From assembly GCA_965140415.1 (NCBI GenBank), contig OZ223209.1, positions 5,184,001-5,248,000 on the forward strand: a DNA stretch of 64,000 nucleotides, given 5' to 3'. Below the pieces are notes generated by a model. The model searched no databases, was not told the DNA's origin, and was given only the letters and a program-made list of their open reading frames with translations. This document shows, one piece after another, positions 54,794 through 64,000 of the stretch; positions within the stretch are counted from its first letter, which is position 1; each line of letters begins with the position of its first letter. A program made the position numbers and the translations under genes. This DNA is from Myxococcota bacterium (lineage in GTDB: Bacteria; Myxococcota_A; SURF-8).

Positions 54794-56485
54794 ATGCTCC
54801 AGAAGCATCGAGTCGCCTTTATGCTTACGCTCTTATTCCTCGTCGTGCTTTCCGCTTGCAGTTCAAGTGATGAAAACAACGATCTTGAAAATCCATGGGA
54901 AAACACTGCTACAGCGACAACCAATGAAAGCGGTGAAGTTTCCTTTTCGTCAACATTCCACGAAAAAGAATTTACTGTTGAAGCCGTCGATCAAAATGGA
55001 GATCCTGTTCAGGGCATTGATGTGACCTTCGGTGAGAATGAAGACATCATTTCAGTAGTTATTCTTGATCCGGATGAACGTTACCTTCCCTCATTGTACA
55101 TCGGTCCCCCGGAAGGACCGGAAGGAAGTATGGAGAGTTCAAGCGAAAGGAAGTTTACTGCAACCAATTCAAACCTGAAATTTAGACTTCCAAGCAAGGG
55201 AGAAGTTGTCATACGTTATGGTGCAATTGCAGTTATCAAGGCTGGTGAATATGTCGCCTCTCCCTTTATTGAGCTAGGAGAAGGAATTTACGATAGCGTA
55301 ATGTTTGATTTGAGTCATATGGATAATTCGAAACCATGGTTATACTACGTCACACCTGAGGAAATATTTGAAGATATACAACGACAGGGAAAAATCAAGT
55401 TTGCTGTTTTGGGAATTGCTAATACAATTATTTCTGGCTTTGATCTTAAAAGCGGTGCCATAAAGACTGCAAAAGGATTCCTAGCATTCATTTTAAAGGA
55501 AGGTGCGAAAGAGTGGACAAGAACCACAACACTAAAAGGCTATGAGATACTTACTGATCTAATAGGTCAGCAGGTAGCCAAAGACAAGCCCTGCTTGAAA
55601 GCAGTAATAATAATGCTGCCAACTTTATCCCGGCTTTTCCTCCCCCTCGAAATTGTCGATGATTCCTATTGCGAAGAAGAGCAAGCGGCTGATGATAATG
55701 ATGGAAGTGAAGAACTGGACTACAGGCATATTTGTGAATTCTCTATTTCGTGTGGAGAGGGAACTGATGAGGATATGCAGGATTGCCTCTCCCATTTTCC
55801 AAGAGCACTACAATATGGGATTTATACTACGGAATGTTTAAACTGCTATGCTTCCATAGATGAATGCGAAGACTTTCATACCTGCGATCAGATTATCGGG
55901 TGCAGGGCGGTTTTATGGAGCCATTCCCCTGGTTGGCCAACCGATTTCTCAAATTGTCCTGAAGATTTCTATATTTATTCCGGCCTAAATGATGATGGCA
56001 CTATCAATAATCAATCCGACTGTCAGAATTTCTGCCAATTGACCGGTCATAATATGTGTGCATATGGGGGAGACTGCGCTTGCAGCATTGATGGCTCCGG
56101 CAACTACACCCCCAATACAGATGGAGATTCAAGCAATACATGTTCAGGCGCCTGGGATTGTGACAGCGACGAAAAGTGCATCGATGGGAAGTGCGTTTAC
56201 CAGGAATGTTCGAGTTCTTTCGACTGCTCAGGAGCAGGTGAGGTTTGTGTTGAAGGATCTTGCGTTCTTCCTGTTTGCGACTTGGTGAGTCCGAGCGGGT
56301 GCTGTTCCCAGAACCCGGCTTGTTCCGACTATTGCTCGGATCATGAAGAATTACCTACAGATAAAAGTGCTGCATGTAGAGAAGGATTGGTGGAGGTAGG
56401 GTTTGCCTGTCGGTCCAACGACTACGTATACGCCTGTCACGATGACGGACGAATGTCTCAAAGCGGAAAATGTACGTGTCCGTAG
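54794..56485 (+). CDS. Lipoprotein with Cys-rich C-terminal modules
   Basis: Lipobox LSAC; GGAGG RBS; C.S..DC....C..G.C repeats. Confidence 0.8.
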   Translation: MLQKHRVAFMLTLLFLVVLSACSSSDENNDLENPWENTATATTNESGEVSFSSTFHEKEFTVEAVDQNGDPVQGIDVTFGENEDIISVVILDPDERYLPSLYIGPPEGPEGSMESSSERKFTATNSNLKFRLPSKGEVVIRYGAIAVIKAGEYVASPFIELGEGIYDSVMFDLSHMDNSKPWLYYVTPEEIFEDIQRQGKIKFAVLGIANTIISGFDLKSGAIKTAKGFLAFILKEGAKEWTRTTTLKGYEILTDLIGQQVAKDKPCLKAVIIMLPTLSRLFLPLEIVDDSYCEEEQAADDNDGSEELDYRHICEFSISCGEGTDEDMQDCLSHFPRALQYGIYTTECLNCYASIDECEDFHTCDQIIGCRAVLWSHSPGWPTDFSNCPEDFYIYSGLNDDGTINNQSDCQNFCQLTGHNMCAYGGDCACSIDGSGNYTPNTDGDSSNTCSGAWDCDSDEKCIDGKCVYQECSSSFDCSGAGEVCVEGSCVLPVCDLVSPSGCCSQNPACSDYCSDHEELPTDKSAACREGLVEVGFACRSNDYVYACHDDGRMSQSGKCTCP

Positions 56486-56524: not shown

Positions 56525-58231
56525 ATGGAGAAAAACATGAGATTTACTATTTCACTATGCTTGGTTGTCATTTCCGGATTCATCATCACTTTCTCCGGCT
56601 GTAGCGAAGGAGACTCCTCTACGGATGATGATTCTCCTTTCAGCGATGGCGACAATGCAACCACAGACGGTGATTCGTCCTCCAATCAATGTTTTCCCGG
56701 TTTTACCTGGGACCAATCAAGCGGAATGTGTTTGCCGGATACAGATGGCGACACTTCGGATGGAGATGTCGCGGATGGCGATAATCAGGTCGATGGGGAT
56801 GCGCAACCGGACGGAGATGCGACGGATGGTGATCTTCCTGTTGATGGCGATGATATGGATTGCCCGGGTTGTGAGGGATTTGCAGGCGATTATTGCATTG
56901 AATCGCAAAGCGGTCCCTATTGCTACCTGCTTTCCATCGAAAGCGCCATTATCGAAAGGACACCCGATACCGACTGTGATTACACTGTGACCGTGACGGC
57001 GAATGGTGAACCACCTGAGTCCGAGCAGGTTACCGGGTGTGATTTTGTAGATAGAGATATCATGGGTATGTGTGGCCTAACGGTCAATTCTGATGGTTCT
57101 ATTACGGTAGAATGTCCTGAGGACTGTACGCTCATTTTCACGCAGCAGGCGTGTGGCTGCGGAGATATGAGCGGTGTTCAGGAAGGGGCCGCGTGGCCGA
57201 TGGAGAGCTATTGCCAGAACCGACATGGCTTAAGTCCACAAAAAGGGCCAGACAATCCCACGTTATTATGGTCGAAGCATATCAGCAACGGAAAGTTTTC
57301 CGGTGCCGCCGTTGATAGCGAAGGGAATGTGTTTTTCAGCAGCAGCGATGGTTTCTATTCTCTGTCATCGAGTGGTGCTGAAAGATGGCAAGCAGGTGCA
57401 GGAGCCGCAAGTGATCCTCCTGCCATTGGCTCAGATGGGACGATCTATTTTTCCTCGAATAACGGTGTTTACGCTTTCTCGCATTCTGGTGAGAGAAAAT
57501 GGAAATATGATGATGGAAAATCCAATGGTTCTGCATTGATCGATAGCAACCATATCGTTTATCTCTCTACAGGAACAGGATTGAAAGGCTTCAACTCGAC
57601 AGGAGAGGTTGTTTGGGAGAGCGAAGAAACAGGTACGGTTTTAGGATCGCCCGCGATGGGTTCGGATGGAAAAATATATTACACAACAGTAGACCCACAT
57701 CAGTTCGTTGCGGTAGATACGGACGGGTCGGTTCTTTGGAAAAAATCTGTAGATGATTACCCATGGTCTGGTCCAACAATCACTCATGCCGGAAATATCC
57801 TATTTGGTGCGGCGGATGGAGTTTTGCGATGCTACTCACCTTTTGGTAATCTGAAGTGGAGCAAACAAATCGACGCTACCATGCAATCTTACCCGGCGAT
57901 TGGAGCCGATGGTACGATTTATACCGGTGGTGCCGATTTAACAGCGCTAGAGCCTTCAACTGGTTCTGAATACTGGAGTTATTCCACTAACGGTTTGATC
58001 AATGGACCAATACTCGTCGATAAGGATGGTACGATCATTTTCGCAGGATCGAATGCCAAGATAAATGCTGTCAACGCAAACGGAACAAAGAAATGGGAGT
58101 TTGATGTTGACTGCCAGGTGAGCTCTATCTCACTGGGTTTTGACCATACGATATATGCCTCGGCAACCTGTGTCGACTGGAACAATGGTGGGCAAATGTC
58201 TGGCTACTTCTATGCGATTGGGGACAGATAA
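56525..58231 (+). CDS. Lipoprotein: DGD linker, Cys-rich domain, PQQ/BamB-like beta-propeller
   Basis: Lipobox FSGC; repeated PAIG.DGTIY...G..KW blades. Confidence 0.85.
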   Translation: MEKNMRFTISLCLVVISGFIITFSGCSEGDSSTDDDSPFSDGDNATTDGDSSSNQCFPGFTWDQSSGMCLPDTDGDTSDGDVADGDNQVDGDAQPDGDATDGDLPVDGDDMDCPGCEGFAGDYCIESQSGPYCYLLSIESAIIERTPDTDCDYTVTVTANGEPPESEQVTGCDFVDRDIMGMCGLTVNSDGSITVECPEDCTLIFTQQACGCGDMSGVQEGAAWPMESYCQNRHGLSPQKGPDNPTLLWSKHISNGKFSGAAVDSEGNVFFSSSDGFYSLSSSGAERWQAGAGAASDPPAIGSDGTIYFSSNNGVYAFSHSGERKWKYDDGKSNGSALIDSNHIVYLSTGTGLKGFNSTGEVVWESEETGTVLGSPAMGSDGKIYYTTVDPHQFVAVDTDGSVLWKKSVDDYPWSGPTITHAGNILFGAADGVLRCYSPFGNLKWSKQIDATMQSYPAIGADGTIYTGGADLTALEPSTGSEYWSYSTNGLINGPILVDKDGTIIFAGSNAKINAVNANGTKKWEFDVDCQVSSISLGFDHTIYASATCVDWNNGGQMSGYFYAIGDR

Positions 58232-58344: not shown

Positions 58345-60009
58345 CTATTCCTCCGCCAGAACGTCGCAGTCGATGAACTGCACGCCCTGCTTGTCGCGGA
58401 TGGGAGAGGCGCAGTATTCGTAGAGATACGGCAGTTCCATCATGCGGCTGACTCCGACTTCGTGCTGGCTGCCGTCCGCTTCCGTAACCGTCTCCCGGCT
58501 CGACGCTTTGTCCGAATTCAGCGATTCACCGTCCTGCATGCTGTTCCAGGGGTCCCAGTGCGGCCATGCGCGATAATGATCGGCGGCTTTGCCGTACCAG
58601 GTCTGGATATGACGCGCCTCATCGGCGGTCAAGGGATAACCGTGGGTGGCCGCCACCAGCAGCCAGCCAGCCATGGCGGAGTCGAAGTCTACGTCGTCGC
58701 GGTGCGCAACATCCGGGTTGTGCATCAGTTCGTCGAAACGTTCCGCCAGACCGTCCATCAGCGCCTCGGCGATCTCGTCCTGCCGCCACAGAATCGCAGC
58801 GGCCATGGCACCGATATGGAAGTGGACGTAAATCTCGTAGTTGAAGAAATGAGTGGCAAAGGCCAGTTTCTCGAAATCCATTCCCGCCAGTCCGCGCTGG
58901 CAATCGCCTTTTCCATGCGGGTCACCGTCCGCCGTCAATGCCGCACCCAACTGCGCATTGCATTCGGCATCCTCACCGAAAATCAGCTCCCAATGCACGA
59001 ACGACCCCAAATCCGCCTCCGGGTTCCCTTCGCGGTCGATGTCGTACATGTGCCGGGCGACGCCGTCGTCGTATTTGGTCAGGATGTACCAGTCGTTCTC
59101 CACGATACTCTGGGTAAAGCCGCGTAAATACTTGATATACAGCCGCGCCGCCTCGCGCAGTTCGGGATCGTCGGCTTCGTAGTAGGCGCGTGTGGCCATC
59201 AGCATCGACTGGTACACATAGGGAATATCGTCTTTGCTGCGCATGTTCGACACCCAGATGTCGCCGTATTCGGGATTGTCCGGAATCTCGAAAATGTGCA
59301 CGTTCCACTTGGCGCTGGCGACGCAGGAGGGCGAATAGTCGATTTCCAACTTGCGGTCATCGACCGTGTAGCCGTGGTTGTGGTTGAAAATCGCACGTGA
59401 TTGCAAGTACTTGACGATCGGGTCTTCGCGCTCGAATTCGAATCCCAGTGACAGCGCTACCATGCCCTTCATGTACTGCCTGGCCACGTCGGCCATGCGT
59501 TGATTGCCGGTGAGCAGGTAGCCGCCGATGGCGTTGGGCAGCAGCTTCATGGTGCGTTCCGCGATGTTTTCCGCGCGGCCATGATGGAACAGCACGAGCG
59601 TGTCGCCTTCTTTTCTCATGCCGACATCCTGCCACCAGAGCTTGTAGTCCATCATGTTTTCATCGTAGCTTTTATCCAGACCGTGGCTGATACGCCAGAC
59701 CCAGTCGAAATATCCGACATCCTTGTAGAAATCCGCCATTTTTTGGCTGAAATCCGCGATTTCTTCCTGGCTGACAGGCTCGCCGGAAGGCTCGCGTGCG
59801 GGACGCTCAAAGCCCAAGGTATCCAAGGGTTTAGGTGGAATCAAGGGGTCCGGTGTTTCGCCTTCGATGTCGGTGGTATCCGAGTCGCCATCGGTAGCGG
59901 CGGCATCCTGGTCGCCGTCTATAGGAGCGACGTCCGAGGAATCTTCGTTGCAGCCTAAAAGCAACAGGGCCAGCAACAACACATAAACGGGTAGAGTTAG
60001 GGTGCGTAT
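58345..60009 (-). CDS. Lipoprotein of unknown function (DGD linker plus large helical domain)
   Basis: Lipobox LLGC; long open frame; start ambiguous (GTG at 59982 or ATA at 60009). Confidence 0.75.
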   Translation of the reverse strand: MRTLTLPVYVLLLALLLLGCNEDSSDVAPIDGDQDAAATDGDSDTTDIEGETPDPLIPPKPLDTLGFERPAREPSGEPVSQEEIADFSQKMADFYKDVGYFDWVWRISHGLDKSYDENMMDYKLWWQDVGMRKEGDTLVLFHHGRAENIAERTMKLLPNAIGGYLLTGNQRMADVARQYMKGMVALSLGFEFEREDPIVKYLQSRAIFNHNHGYTVDDRKLEIDYSPSCVASAKWNVHIFEIPDNPEYGDIWVSNMRSKDDIPYVYQSMLMATRAYYEADDPELREAARLYIKYLRGFTQSIVENDWYILTKYDDGVARHMYDIDREGNPEADLGSFVHWELIFGEDAECNAQLGAALTADGDPHGKGDCQRGLAGMDFEKLAFATHFFNYEIYVHFHIGAMAAAILWRQDEIAEALMDGLAERFDELMHNPDVAHRDDVDFDSAMAGWLLVAATHGYPLTADEARHIQTWYGKAADHYRAWPHWDPWNSMQDGESLNSDKASSRETVTEADGSQHEVGVSRMMELPYLYEYCASPIRDKQGVQFIDCDVLAEE

Positions 60010-60243: not shown

Positions 60244-61563
60244 TCAACCGCAACCGCCGGTAACTTTGGCTTTCGCCCGGATCTTCACCTTGGCGTCGTA
60301 GGTATATTTCGGCCATACGGGACGATGCCCCTTGCCTTCGATGTTCGGATTCTGCTTGTCGCATTCGTAAGGAATGACTTCCTTGCAGCCACATTCGGGA
60401 TGCGCATTGTAGGCGCGTCCACCGACCGCGCGCAGAAAACGGAAACCCAGTTCTTCATCCGCTTTGCGTAGTTCCGGCGCCGCATTAGCGAGACAGGGAG
60501 TTGATTGATACTTGCTCAGCCAATTGTTGTAACCGCCTTCAACCACATAGATATTGGGCACCCCCGCCGCATACAACTCCCGATAGGCTTCTGTCGCCCA
60601 CTGTTCACCGTTGGAGATGATAAACGTAGCAGTGTTGGTCGGTTGCTTTTTCAAACGCTTGATTAACGCCGGATCGCCCGCCGTTCCTGGCTCAAGGCGC
60701 ACGGCCCCCTGCAAGTGGAAAAGGTTGAAATAGGCTTCAGGACGCACATCCAGCGTGGTTACGTAAACTCCCGGATTTCCACGGAAAGCAACCACTTCCG
60801 CCGGATGCACGTACACCGCGCGAGACTCCAGCGTTTCTCCGGCTTTCGGCTGCAACTGCTCCCAACGCTTCTCCAAACTCGGCTGACCGATCAGCAACAC
60901 AACCAATCCCACCAGCACCAGCGCGCCAGCCGCCGTCACATGTCGGCGATTGCTGAAACGCCACAATGAGCCACTCGGGCGGGGCTTATCGCCAAACACG
61001 CTTTCCGAGATTTCACCCAGGAAAAAGGCGAACAGCGCCATCAGGATCAATCCGACCAGCACCACGCCTGCATCGACGCCCAACCAGTCCATCATCGTAA
61101 AACGACCGTAATAGCTGCTGTGCCAGAAGGCATCGATCGAACCGACCCATTCACCGAACACGAAGGTGCCCAGCGTCACGCCCAGGGCGAACACCATGCC
61201 GTCGATTTTCATCGTGCTGGCCGCCACCAGGGAGGTTCCCGGACAGAAGCCGCCGATAATGAAGCCGACTCCCATAATCAGGCCGCCCACAATTCCCGGC
61301 CACAAATAGGTGGGATTGACGAACACGCGGGAAAAATCCAATAATCCCAGGGAAGTGGACAAGAAGATCAAGGTCGCCGCCACGACGATACCGGTGAACA
61401 TCACCTTTAAAACCGTCATTTCCTTCAAGTAGAACTGCGCCGCCAGCTTGCGGCTGTCACCGAATCCGGCCATTTCCAAGGTCGCACCGAATCCCGCTCC
61501 GATCAGGAAGAAAACGAGGAAATAGGTGACGTCGCTCCAGGTGCTTAAATCATAGGGTGCCAT
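60244..61563 (-). CDS. YeeE/YedE sulfur-compound transporter subunit fused to a rhodanese-like domain, ending in GGCG
   Basis: GAGFGATLE, QFYLKEMTVLKVMFTGI, GGFCPGTS; DVRP...FNLFHLQGA...NIYVVEGG; start at MAPYDL after GGAGG. Confidence 0.88.
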   Translation of the reverse strand: MAPYDLSTWSDVTYFLVFFLIGAGFGATLEMAGFGDSRKLAAQFYLKEMTVLKVMFTGIVVAATLIFLSTSLGLLDFSRVFVNPTYLWPGIVGGLIMGVGFIIGGFCPGTSLVAASTMKIDGMVFALGVTLGTFVFGEWVGSIDAFWHSSYYGRFTMMDWLGVDAGVVLVGLILMALFAFFLGEISESVFGDKPRPSGSLWRFSNRRHVTAAGALVLVGLVVLLIGQPSLEKRWEQLQPKAGETLESRAVYVHPAEVVAFRGNPGVYVTTLDVRPEAYFNLFHLQGAVRLEPGTAGDPALIKRLKKQPTNTATFIISNGEQWATEAYRELYAAGVPNIYVVEGGYNNWLSKYQSTPCLANAAPELRKADEELGFRFLRAVGGRAYNAHPECGCKEVIPYECDKQNPNIEGKGHRPVWPKYTYDAKVKIRAKAKVTGGCG

Positions 61564-61577
61564 CTCGTGATCCTCCC

Positions 61578-62111
61578 TTAATTCCAATGCCGACGGAAGA
61601 AGTAGGCCAGCGCATAGCCGCCGCCGAAAACGGCGAACATGAAAGCGAAGCTGCCCACACTAAGCACTGCGCCGCCGCTTAATGCCTGCCCGGAGGTGCA
61701 GCCGCGCGCCATGCGCGCTCCCACTCCCATAATCAGCCCGCCAAGCAGCGCAAACACAATGCGCGTTCCCGTTTTGGCGTTCGGTCCCTTGCGCAGTTCG
61801 AATTTGAAGCGCCGGTTGAACAGACCGGAAAGCGCCCCACCGAAAAAGGTGCCAAGCAACATGTAAATGCTGGAATGATGCAAGGGGTTTTTGTCGCCTC
61901 CCGCCGTTTGCGCGAAGTAAGCAACCTGGTTGACGTGCTCCGATGCGACCAGATCCAGTACGGAGATCTGGATACGGTTGATCGCGCCGCTGGCGCCCAG
62001 TCCACCTCCCGTAATATAGAAGGAAAGGAAGAGCACTACTCCCAGTATCGTACCCGCAAGATACGGGTTCATGTAGGGACGCGCGGTTTTCTGTTTACTA
62101 TTCGCAGACAT
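61578..62111 (-). CDS. YeeE/YedE family transporter subunit
   Basis: NPYLAG, GLGASG, LGTFFGG, GARMARGCTSGQALSG. Confidence 0.92.
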   Translation of the reverse strand: MSANSKQKTARPYMNPYLAGTILGVVLFLSFYITGGGLGASGAINRIQISVLDLVASEHVNQVAYFAQTAGGDKNPLHHSSIYMLLGTFFGGALSGLFNRRFKFELRKGPNAKTGTRIVFALLGGLIMGVGARMARGCTSGQALSGGAVLSVGSFAFMFAVFGGGYALAYFFRRHWN

Positions 62112-62114
62112 GGC

Positions 62115-64000
62115 TTACCTCGCTGTGTTCGATTCGGAATCGGAGGCGACTTCGATATCTTCATACCCGGTGACCATCGCTTTCAGGTTGGAAGTCAGCG
62201 TATGGCCGGTGGTGATCAGGTACAGATGGGCTGCAATAAAGCTGAGCAGCAACCAGCTTCCAAGATTGTGTAACGGCGCAACCAGGCTTAACCCCTGAAT
62301 ATTCGCGGCGGTTTCCGGCCACTGCGACACGGCCCAGATCAATAAACCGGTAACGACCTGGAAGGGGAACAGCACGTTCATCAATCCCATATAGGTGATC
62401 TGCTGCAAGGGATTCAGCTTGCGTTCCGGTGTCTTTTCGATGGGATGCGGTGCACCGACGAAAATGCCGTTCAGGTAATATTGGGCCTGCACCAGCACAT
62501 CCTGAATGAACGATTCCCGCCTGGGAATGAACTGCCGGATGTTGGCAGTCGCCAGATGGTAGAAAAGAGAAAGCAGCGCATTGACGATCATAATCACCGC
62601 CAGCACATTGTGCATGTCCACGGCGAGGCGGAAGCCGAATAGGTGCAGGCTACCCATGTAGTGGATTTCCAATCCCGTCAACGCCAGCAGTATGATACTT
62701 GCAGCCATCAACCAGTGCCAGATGCGCTCGTATAGCTGGTACATATACACGCGCTTCATCTTGGCGTGCGACTGTTGCCGATGTTTGCGGGTGAAGATGC
62801 GGTAGGAAGCGTGCGCGCCCAGTCCCAGCGCGGTCATGATGAAGAAGGCCAATCCGAGCAGATCGCTCCAGGGCTGACGGTCATGCCCGAGGATATAAAC
62901 ATCCCCGCTGCGTTGCGGTGCGAAGGTCACGCTCGCTCTGTCCTGTACGATTGAGCCGCCAACGGCCAATCCGTCCGTGGACGGTCCCTGTGGGGCCATA
63001 CCTCCAACAAGAGAAGCCGTCAGCATCACCGGGCGGTCGATCGCGGTCTGCTCGCCGTGACAGCGCGTACAATCCAAGGTAACGGCGTTATGATCTTTCA
63101 CGCCGTGCGAGACAGCAAGCACATCCAGGCGCGAAACGATTTTCGGGTCGTTCACGCCAACCGCAACAAGCCGCGCCCTGGCCGCTGCGATTTCCGAGTC
63201 GTCACCAAGCTTCCATTCGCCGTCTTCCACCTTGCCGTCGTGGTCGTCGTCCAAAGCGGCAGCCAGATTGGGATGCAGCTCGCCATCGACGAAAAAGGCT
63301 TTCATCAGCAGTTCGCGAGAAAGCGGCTCATCGATTTCTTTTCCGCGCCAATACCAGCTTGTCAGCATATTGGCCGCATGAACGCGGGACTGACCGTCAT
63401 CATCCAGAGCAGTCAACAAAAACGGTTGATAACGACGAACGTAGCGAACATTGGCGACTTTTCCACGGTCCGCATCCGCGTTCCAGTATTCCACCTGCGA
63501 TCCGCCATCGGCAAGCGGCAGAGTCGCATCAATCGTGCGTGCAACGGGGGCCGTCCATTCAGGGACGTGACAGCTCTGGCAGGAAACGCGCTCCATATGG
63601 CGCTGCTTGTAAGGCAGATCCTCATGGATCACCATCGGATCGTGACAATCGGTGCACTTCGAGCTTAACAGGCGATGATCGGGTTTCTTCAGAAAGTCAC
63701 CAAGGTCCATGCGGCGCGGGTCGTTGCGCAGATGCGCCAGCGGCTCGGCTTCCTTTTTGCTGTGCTTAGGTGAATTGGCCGGGTAATGACAATCGGCGCA
63801 GGAAAGCAGCCGTTCGGCATGTACGTCCCAGGCATACGGTTTGTCGTCCTTGCCTTCAATATTCAGATAGGAATCGCGGATCGGGTGACGCGAAAAAATA
63901 ACGCCGCTTCTCCGCGTCTGACTGAACGGATCTTCATCCGTCAGCAAACTGGCTTTGCTGTCGAAATCGTTGGGGAGACGCATGGGAAAACGGTCATCGT
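62115..64000 (-). CDS. Multiheme cytochrome c fused to a cytochrome b (FdnI/HupC/PhsC-like) membrane domain, partial (5' end beyond the window)
   Basis: CADCH, CTDCH, CQSCH, CTRCH; ERIWHW, MHNVL, KLNPLQQ, LHN...FIAAHLY; frame open to the window edge. Confidence 0.88.
   Translation of the reverse strand, partial: DDRFPMRLPNDFDSKASLLTDEDPFSQTRRSGVIFSRHPIRDSYLNIEGKDDKPYAWDVHAERLLSCADCHYPANSPKHSKKEAEPLAHLRNDPRRMDLGDFLKKPDHRLLSSKCTDCHDPMVIHEDLPYKQRHMERVSCQSCHVPEWTAPVARTIDATLPLADGGSQVEYWNADADRGKVANVRYVRRYQPFLLTALDDDGQSRVHAANMLTSWYWRGKEIDEPLSRELLMKAFFVDGELHPNLAAALDDDHDGKVEDGEWKLGDDSEIAAARARLVAVGVNDPKIVSRLDVLAVSHGVKDHNAVTLDCTRCHGEQTAIDRPVMLTASLVGGMAPQGPSTDGLAVGGSIVQDRASVTFAPQRSGDVYILGHDRQPWSDLLGLAFFIMTALGLGAHASYRIFTRKHRQQSHAKMKRVYMYQLYERIWHWLMAASIILLALTGLEIHYMGSLHLFGFRLAVDMHNVLAVIMIVNALLSLFYHLATANIRQFIPRRESFIQDVLVQAQYYLNGIFVGAPHPIEKTPERKLNPLQQITYMGLMNVLFPFQVVTGLLIWAVSQWPETAANIQGLSLVAPLHNLGSWLLLSFIAAHLYLITTGHTLTSNLKAMVTGYEDIEVASDSESNTAR

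Follow-up and report, generated by a model that had tools for sequence, protein, structure and literature searches.

A cysteine-tipped arm on a split YeeE-type channel, encoded beside an OTR-family octaheme cytochrome, as a candidate tethered sulfur carrier

Several described systems resemble, each in part, a gene found close to one end of a 64,000-nucleotide stretch of DNA from a Myxococcota bacterium (assembly GCA_965140415.1, contig OZ223209.1, positions 5,184,001 to 5,248,000; this whole stretch is referred to below as the window). Sud, from Wolinella, is a periplasmic rhodanese-fold protein that transfers polysulfide sulfur and serves the quinol-dependent polysulfide reductase. SoxY (TIGR04488), whose partners are SoxXA/B/CD, has a glycine-rich cysteine motif at its C-terminus, preceded by K-V-K/T, on a flexible outer arm that is regarded as a covalent sulfur carrier. 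Passages of PMC11582611 propose a relay from the SoxY cysteine to a cysteine of SoxT, and also describe a split channel consisting of PmpA (the C-terminal half) and PmpB (the N-terminal half). For the channel YeeE/TsuA, excerpts from PMC7449682 place the N-terminus of StYeeE (6LEO) outside and its C-terminus inside, with the second half inverted by helix H7; of the cysteines, C293 sits at the outer mouth, whereas C91 and C22 lie nearer the cytoplasm. What the window encodes is a PmpB-like half of such a channel, followed by an extra membrane helix, a rhodanese fold without a loop cysteine, and a basic tail ending in GGCG (here called the arm protein). Our preferred interpretation, of which we are about half persuaded, is that the terminal cysteine would be a tethered covalent sulfur carrier on a split YeeE channel, serving both that channel and an OTR-family octaheme cytochrome, and would be unrelated to SoxY.

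OTR itself was reportedly crystallised in 2004. According to passages of a 2026 paper (PMC12949373), its physiological role was never established: in vitro it can reduce tetrathionate, nitrite and hydroxylamine as free compounds, yet in Shewanella ANA-3 otr was dispensable for tetrathionate respiration, sulfite reduction being mentioned as a possibility, and the Shewanella enzyme is soluble and thought to be fed by CymA. A passage of PMC8528874 reports that in an Acidobacteriota metagenome-assembled genome (MAG) otr was up 36-fold after tetrathionate addition. The OTR encoded with the arm protein, which unlike the Shewanella enzyme comes with its own cytochrome c::b fusion, channel and arm, scores 542.6 bits against TIGR04315 (cut-off 375), has eight CxxCH motifs, and aligns over its full length with Shewanella oneidensis OTR (1SP3; 458.6 bits). 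Its residues K159 and C167, which align with K56 and C64 of 1SP3, are invariant in 31 OTRs from loci of this kind. Mowat et al. 2004 reportedly identified K56 as the haem-ligating lysine and C64 as an active-site cysteine.

The arm protein comprises 447 residues if translation begins at a TTG, but probably 439 from the ATG at 61563, this start being favoured because the database copy (P0001) and the family consensus MAPFDL both begin there. As a preliminary description of the locus, made from the letters of the DNA, had it, the open reading frame (ORF) lies on the minus strand and ends in KAKVTGGCG followed by a stop, the codon of the terminal cysteine being TGC at 60250-60252; the interval of 60244-60800 which that description gave for the whole protein takes in just the rhodanese domain and tail. 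It had also proposed that the conservation of GGCG be checked by aligning homologs, a lack of it counting as refutation, and the outcome favours its reading. A word-indexed protein search scored 8000 candidates, of which 4492 were relatives at E up to 0.001, and in the best 120 of these relatives (48-57% identity, 419-451 residues, the same two Pfam domains) the ending is GGCG in 116 and GGCS in the other four. A scan of 185,579 species genomes found at least 587 with a confirmed relative. The best 80 loci from among these, used for endings and synteny, come from at least seven phyla (Myxococcota, Chloroflexota, Eisenbacteria, Acidobacteriota, Gemmatimonadota and Gammaproteobacteria, together with Bdellovibrionota-like MAGs), and they end in GGCG (73), GGCS (2), GGCGG (1, L042) or GSGCGS (1), the remaining three being one GGG-TGA-GGC-TAA, one frameshifted copy with GGCG in another frame, and one broken copy. 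Endings of this kind are far beyond chance; in the window's own genome, GGC(G/GG/S) terminates just 4 of 17,853 ORFs of at least 80 residues. In a sample of one Chloroflexota class, the arm protein is present in 45 of 301 genomes and ends in GGCG in 29 of 30 loci, the sole exception being the query genome with a TGA codon discussed below. No stand-alone proteins of 114-364 residues consisting of the rhodanese domain plus tail were found by the word-indexed search at E up to 1e-5, although distant ones are possible.

Pfam recognises Sulf_transp (PF04143) at residues 50-232 (49.4 bits, cut-off 27) and Rhodanese (PF00581) at residues 278-358 (44.4 bits, cut-off 22.2). In the rhodanese active-site loop, the catalytic cysteine of 6mxv and YnjE aligns by phmmer with the second isoleucine of TFIISNGE, and their arginine with a glutamine; the serine that was at first supposed to occupy the catalytic position in fact sits one place past it, but the loop was rightly said to lack cysteine. 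The loop of the window's protein does not conform to the CxxGxR pattern of a catalytic cysteine, the 120 homologs have no conserved cysteine there, and the rhodanese fold is, judged by its sequence, catalytically dead. Even so, the loop residues N318 and F314 are kept in at least 90% of the sequences. In the AF2 model, pLDDT exceeds 90 over the rhodanese fold and drops below 50 over the last eight residues. A Foldseek search with the whole model returned rhodanese structures only; the half-channel taken alone has pLDDT of 50-65, and Foldseek did not retrieve 6LEO with it.

The cysteines invariant in the 120 homologs are those of FCPG, of STPC (residue 365), of YEC (residue 409) and of the terminal GGCG. 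The preliminary description had pointed to a cluster of extra cysteines in the tail, comprising PECGC and YEC; of this only the YEC cysteine survives, since those of PECGC are kept in just 18 and 17 of the 120. On the same grounds PECGC was ruled out as a metal or haem site. A MoaD/ThiS-like thiocarboxylate on a C-terminal Gly-Gly was likewise considered and rejected, as the sequence reads GGCG with cysteine or selenocysteine as its invariant residue, and by prediction the tail faces the outside of the cell, which lacks ATP.

Although the arm and SoxY share the type of C-terminal motif, its flexibility and a proposed role, the resemblance appears to be at the level of the motif only. There is no match to SoxY or SoxZ with Pfam or NCBIfam models at E up to 0.1, the arm is carried on a rhodanese domain fused to a channel half, the SoxY ending is GGCGG according to its model name and is therefore one glycine longer than GGCG (GGCGG being seen in 1 of the 80 relatives), and the partner is an OTR-family octaheme cytochrome in place of the SoxY partners. 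A system independent of Sox had been suggested at the outset, and as far as tested this holds: no SoxY match was found in the window's own genome, which is 93.7% complete. Compared with Sud, which is soluble and bears its cysteine in the rhodanese loop, there is the likeness that a rhodanese-fold protein outside the membrane would bring bound sulfur to a respiratory reductase, but here the loop has no cysteine, and the cysteine is instead on the arm of a membrane protein.

The relationship to the YeeE channels is closer. Between them, the two Sulf_transp halves have equivalents of both essential cysteines of StYeeE, C91 and C293; C22 has no counterpart among the invariant cysteines of the arm protein. 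It had been noted earlier that FCPG and GCTSG are both retained, as indeed they are, but GCTSG belongs to a separate upstream gene of 177 residues, which matches positions 169-309 of the 310 in the Sulf_transp profile (77.4 bits). The transporter is thus split into PmpA-like and PmpB-like genes, with the same division into C-half and N-half proteins as in PmpA/PmpB and unlike the single-chain YeeE with its nine transmembrane (TM) helices. Where the arm protein differs from all of these is that its PmpB-like half keeps an H7-like helix and adds a sixth helix, an outer rhodanese domain and the cysteine arm. Both channel motifs are well kept among the relatives, FCPG in 80 of 81 sequences and GC[TS]SG in 78 of 79.

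Rrf2, OTR, the heptaheme cytochrome c::cytochrome b fusion, PmpA and the arm gene form one operon, judging by their spacing: OTR and the fusion overlap by 1 nt (stop of the former, likely start of the latter), and the other junctions are of 3 to 14 nt. The fusion has seven CxxCH motifs and matches Ni_hydr_CYTB (91.6 bits) and, below its cut-off of 204, a PhsC-like model (125.8 bits). Among loci with at least 4800 nt of upstream sequence, OTR, the fusion, PmpA and the arm gene occur in the same order and on the same strand in 60 of 62; taken singly, PmpA lies upstream in 77 of the 78 loci whose flank is 700 nt or longer, and the fusion in 64 of the 67 with at least 3200 nt upstream. Besides these genes just one neighbour recurs, an ArsR-type regulator (24 of 80 loci), whose place is taken by Rrf2 in the window's own genome and in L002, L005 and L019. 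No SoxZ-like gene was found among the conserved neighbours and no YeeD/TsuB-like gene in the operon. The preliminary description had linked the arm to the neighbouring cytochrome; that neighbour proves to be the electron-transferring heptaheme fusion, and OTR, one gene further upstream, is the likelier chemical partner because it is conserved in synteny. So constant a partnership suggests that OTR works on sulfur held by the arm.

If the arm is to be loaded from outside the cell, then its topology is critical. Hydropathy gives six hydrophobic segments for the arm protein, namely the four of the N-terminal half, one that is H7-like, and a sixth. Averaged over the 120 homologs, the number of Lys plus Arg is 0.04 for the N-terminus, 2.83 for loop 1-2, 0.93 for loop 2-3, 1.04 for loop 4-5 and 4.06 for loop 5-6, an alternation which fits an outside N-terminus and an inside loop 5-6, so that the sixth helix would place the rhodanese domain and tail on the outer face. 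A periplasmic location, proposed in the preliminary description, is in this way also what homology to StYeeE and these counts predict, and a cytoplasmic tail, which that description had named as refuting its reading, is not predicted. The last 25 residues have on average 6.4 Lys plus Arg and 1.0 Asp plus Glu (a net charge of about +5.4).

A quite different line of evidence comes from codon usage at the arm. In the order of Chloroflexota that contains G180 and G002, 12 of 56 genomes have the arm protein; three of these have Cys at the arm, while in the other nine (L086, L154-L160 and L163) the arm reads GGG-TGA-(Gly/Ser)-stop. In four of the nine (L158, L159, L160 and L163) there is also a TGA exactly at the FCPG cysteine, whereas GCTSG of PmpA still has Cys in all eight of the TGA-type loci where it is visible (in G180 no PmpA partner was found with the query used, the contig ending at the arm gene). 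A 7-bp hairpin follows the arm TGA at a distance of 14-16 nt in all nine, with five pairs invariant and the closing pair alternating between C-G and A-U. SelA scores above its cut-off in eight of the nine TGA genomes (all but G726, where none was found) and likewise in the three Cys-type genomes of the order, and SelB is present in G002. These relatives thereby show what is looked for in a bacterial selenoprotein, namely TGA at a cysteine position, a maintained frame, a hairpin and the selenocysteine (Sec) machinery. With TGA at two functional cysteines, and with frame and hairpin both kept, the in-frame codons are hard to explain except as selenocysteine. An Rfam scan of two Sec-type loci found no SECIS family, just sub-threshold chance matches. 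The folding energy of the 45 nt after Sec as against Cys codons gave p = 0.019 for the arm and p = 0.67 for the channel, but this comparison is confounded by base composition and terminators and does not usefully separate the groups. Since exchange of Cys and Sec marks redox or chalcogen-transfer residues, TGA at the arm argues for chalcogen chemistry at that residue, and its sharing by arm and FCPG ties the arm to the channel cysteine. As separate observations, the four loci with TGA at FCPG have a GGUC-looped hairpin of near-identical sequence after it, within the coding sequence, and the genome containing the window carries SelA and SelB though its own arm codon is TGC (Cys) and not TGA.

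Arms tipped with cysteine are not confined to the rhodanese scaffold. Sampling of 401 Gammaproteobacteria gave OTR at E up to 1e-60 in 34 genomes, and 30 of the loci were examined. Directly upstream of OTR in seven of them (L118, L119, L124, L125, L127, L129 and L134) lies a gene for a membrane-anchored protein of about 181 residues with a Gly-rich tail ending in GGC or SGC, in which Pfam called DUF302 (PF03625) in both members tested. In longer stretches (L146-L150) the DUF302-arm comes first, then an OTR whose C-terminal part includes a hydrophobic segment, then cytochrome b and last a Redoxin/thioredoxin-like protein, and tblastn found neither PmpA nor PmpB in five DUF302-type loci of 16-20 kb. 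These proteins share with the arm protein a membrane anchor, a Gly-rich tail ending in cysteine and a place beside OTR and cytochrome b, but their fold is unrelated, there are no YeeE halves nearby, and a Redoxin-like protein follows the cytochrome b. In a FastTree analysis of 92 OTRs, the 61 that accompany the rhodanese-type arm all fall on one side of a branch (value 98), the gammaproteobacterial sequences form a group of their own (100), and the seven DUF302-linked OTRs plus one more make up one clade (99). A passage of PMC11237559, moreover, mentions soxY-S3 lying between otr and soxZ in lucinid symbionts. Beside OTR, then, cysteine-tipped arms turn up repeatedly on scaffolds unrelated to one another, whether or not a channel is present: rhodanese-, DUF302- and SoxY-type arms all adjoin it.

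The idea of a tethered covalent sulfur carrier goes back to the preliminary description, whose core the evidence supports and whose details it corrects. For the module as a whole we infer an outside location of the arm, a covalent adduct, a direction of electron flow and a set of sulfur species, as follows. The arm thiol would be loaded outside the cell, either with an S-thiosulfonate, for instance from tetrathionate or other polythionates, or with a persulfide. S-thiosulfonates form readily when thiols meet tetrathionate, and the basic, flexible tail would attract such anions. OTR would then reduce the arm-bound group, using electrons passed from quinol to cytochrome b, to the heptaheme domain and on to OTR; this reductive direction is suggested because the cytochrome b is PhsC-like and there is no hydrolase in the operon. 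Finally, the persulfide left on the arm would be handed to the PmpA GCTSG cysteine at the outer mouth, and from there to the PmpB FCPG cysteine and the cytoplasm. The rhodanese fold, having no cysteine but still conserved loop residues, would serve as an anion-binding or docking scaffold. A broader form of this proposal, possible in our view although we lean slightly against it, is that the natural substrate of the OTR family would be sulfur that a tethered arm carries at its terminal Cys or Sec, and not a free ion, such arms having been built at least three times on unrelated scaffolds (split-YeeE rhodanese, DUF302 and SoxY); the arm would link quinol-driven reduction outside the membrane to the cysteine relay of the channel, giving a Sox-independent route for respiring and importing sulfur that hundreds of species from many phyla would share.

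All of this must be set against a number of points that tell in the other direction. The OTRs of this module were gathered by way of the arm gene; linkage between the two is therefore built in, and only the separation of the clades is informative. No cysteine-tipped neighbour was seen within 1.5 kb in 23 of the 30 loci with a gammaproteobacterial OTR, and the second OTR paralog of the window's own genome has no arm nearby. Two of the 62 loci lack adjacent OTR and c::b genes, L008 being scrambled and L057 (7987-10116) having only ArsR-PmpA-PmpB, with ArsR directly upstream, and L079 (3214-5097; upstream flank 3849 nt) is also without the cytochromes, so it is evident that the arm can exist without an adjacent OTR. 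The topology has been derived from homology and charge bias, and the basic tail, if read naively by the positive-inside rule, would fit a cytoplasmic location. Electron direction and substrate were read from family names, in the case of the cytochrome b from a PhsC-like match that falls short of its cut-off, and an oxidative role for the module is still conceivable. A complex prediction with OTR residues 88-528 and rhodanese-tail residues 232-439, both supplied as alignments, scored 0.08 (mark 0.32), which speaks neither for nor against binding.

Loci such as L057 and L079, where PmpA and the arm protein stand without adjacent cytochromes, would fit the alternative that the arm served the channel only, capturing thiosulfate, polysulfide or persulfide outside the cell for PmpA/PmpB, while OTR acted on a free molecule such as tetrathionate or sulfite and was co-encoded because its product is imported. 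The pairing of TGA at arm and FCPG in four genomes also fits this, as do the reduction of free tetrathionate, nitrite and hydroxylamine in vitro and the 36-fold rise of otr with tetrathionate, as reported in the passages already cited from PMC12949373 and PMC8528874. We nevertheless consider this explanation rather unlikely, since a separate OTR clade keeps its DUF302 cysteine arm with no YeeE half within 16-20 kb, and soxY-S3 is reported beside otr (same passage of PMC11237559); it is therefore OTR, and not the channel, that recurs as the partner of such arms. These same channel-free arms, together with the near-obligate synteny with OTR (60 of 62), would be left unexplained if the terminal cysteine were instead a redox sensor or gate, opening or closing the split YeeE channel through a disulfide or persulfide. 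The flexibility of the tail and the two further invariant cysteines of the outer domain (residues 365 and 409) could accommodate such a gate, and exchange of Sec and Cys is, as a matter of general knowledge, also seen in thiol-disulfide switches, but on balance we regard it as highly unlikely.

Given that some relatives are themselves selenoproteins, it is also necessary to consider whether selenium, and not sulfur, might be the cargo, with OTR reducing selenite, the arm binding selenium and a YedE-like channel importing it. Among NCBIfam models, the PmpA-like half does score best against the selenium protein YedE/FdhT (48.1 bits), and the rhodanese domain matches a model for a rhodanese-related selenoprotein (17.2 bits); these scores, though, lie far under the respective cut-offs of 350 and 115. 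Genomes G001 and G003 have the module, yet neither yielded a match to SelA, nor one to SelB above cut-off, and the ArsR and Rrf2 regulators, as well as DsrA in the organism, fit sulfur metabolism. This is the least probable of the explanations considered. Returning to the tethered sulfur carrier that we prefer, the combination of OTR, quinol dehydrogenase, split YeeE and cysteine arm is a widespread module that is apparently undescribed: a full-text search of the literature, which did not extend to subscription journals and supplements, found no description of the operon or arm. With a near-obligate Cys/Sec-arm partner in hand, the question of what OTR does becomes open to experiment. Should the interpretation prove correct, this would be the first case of a YeeE-type channel that carries its own sulfur donor on the outside (for SoxY and SoxT, passages of PMC11582611 propose this arrangement in trans), and the carrier-arm principle would reach beyond the Sox system. 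Sulfur-cycle annotations such as "tetrathionate reductase" and "thiosulfate transporter" may, given how widespread the module is, overlook a pathway.

Table 1. Features of the arm gene, its operon and other loci of the same genome. Coordinates are window positions except where prefixed G000:C1 (genome and contig of the window).
Feature	Coordinates	Strand	Basis
Arm gene: PmpB-like YeeE half, extra TM helix, Cys-less rhodanese, basic GGCG tail	60244..61587	-	ORF, Pfam, homologs
Flexible C-terminal arm, last 8 residues (AKVTGGCG)	60247..60270	-	sequence; pLDDT <50
Post-rhodanese region with invariant Cys 365 and 409 and basic KVKxxxK	60271..60513	-	homolog conservation
Invariant Cys codon, residue 365	60493-60495	-	
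Invariant Cys codon, residue 409	60361-60363	-	
Rhodanese fold, active-site loop FIISNGEQ without Cys or Arg	60514..60756	-	Pfam, 6mxv/YnjE alignment, AF2, Foldseek
Sixth membrane helix, predicted inside to outside	60883..60942	-	hydropathy, loop charge, StYeeE topology
Sulf_transp N-terminal half, profile 12-192 of 310	60892..61440	-	Pfam
FCPG Cys codon, equivalent of StYeeE C91	61243-61245	-	motif conservation
PmpA-like gene, 177 aa: C-terminal half of YeeE; Cys of GCTSG corresponds to StYeeE C293 at the outer mouth	61578..62111	-	Pfam
Heptaheme cytochrome c::PhsC-like cytochrome b, 823 aa longest ORF	62115..64000, on to about 64451	-	
OTR-family octaheme cytochrome, upstream of c::b fusion	G000:C1:5248451-5250037, beyond window		TIGR04315
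Rrf2 regulator, upstream of c::b fusion	beyond window		
DGD-linker protein	58345-59982	-	
DGD-linker protein	54794-56485	+	
DGD-linker protein	56525-58231	+	
Second OTR paralog	G000:C1:1966423-1970601		496.5 bits
DsrA, with a weaker DsrA-model match just downstream	G000:C1:1450456-1452729		580.9 bits, above cut-off
Separate full-length YeeE	G000:C1:4182540-4183556		205.1 bits

Some smaller observations may be recorded here. The second OTR paralog of this genome is fused to an NrfD/PsrC-like membrane domain in an ORF of 1074 residues, and upstream of it lies a gene for an NrfC-like 4Fe-4S protein with a Tat signal. In the gammaproteobacterial MAG G001, OTR and the c::b fusion occur in one frame of about 904-909 residues (L074, G001:C3:585115-587145), which may be genuine or an artefact of assembly; G001 also encodes two more OTR paralogs. 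A small secreted rhodanese is encoded a few genes upstream of the PmpA-PmpB pair in L079. Downstream of the arm gene in the window, a gene of 545 residues finds no match in Pfam or NCBIfam, and in other genomes it does not accompany the module. Three sequencing runs, all from one study, contain the DNA, and no RNA run is listed as containing it. The flanks of the operon encode lipoprotein-like and secreted proteins in which Cys-rich modules occur along with long linkers rich in Asp and Gly (DGD).

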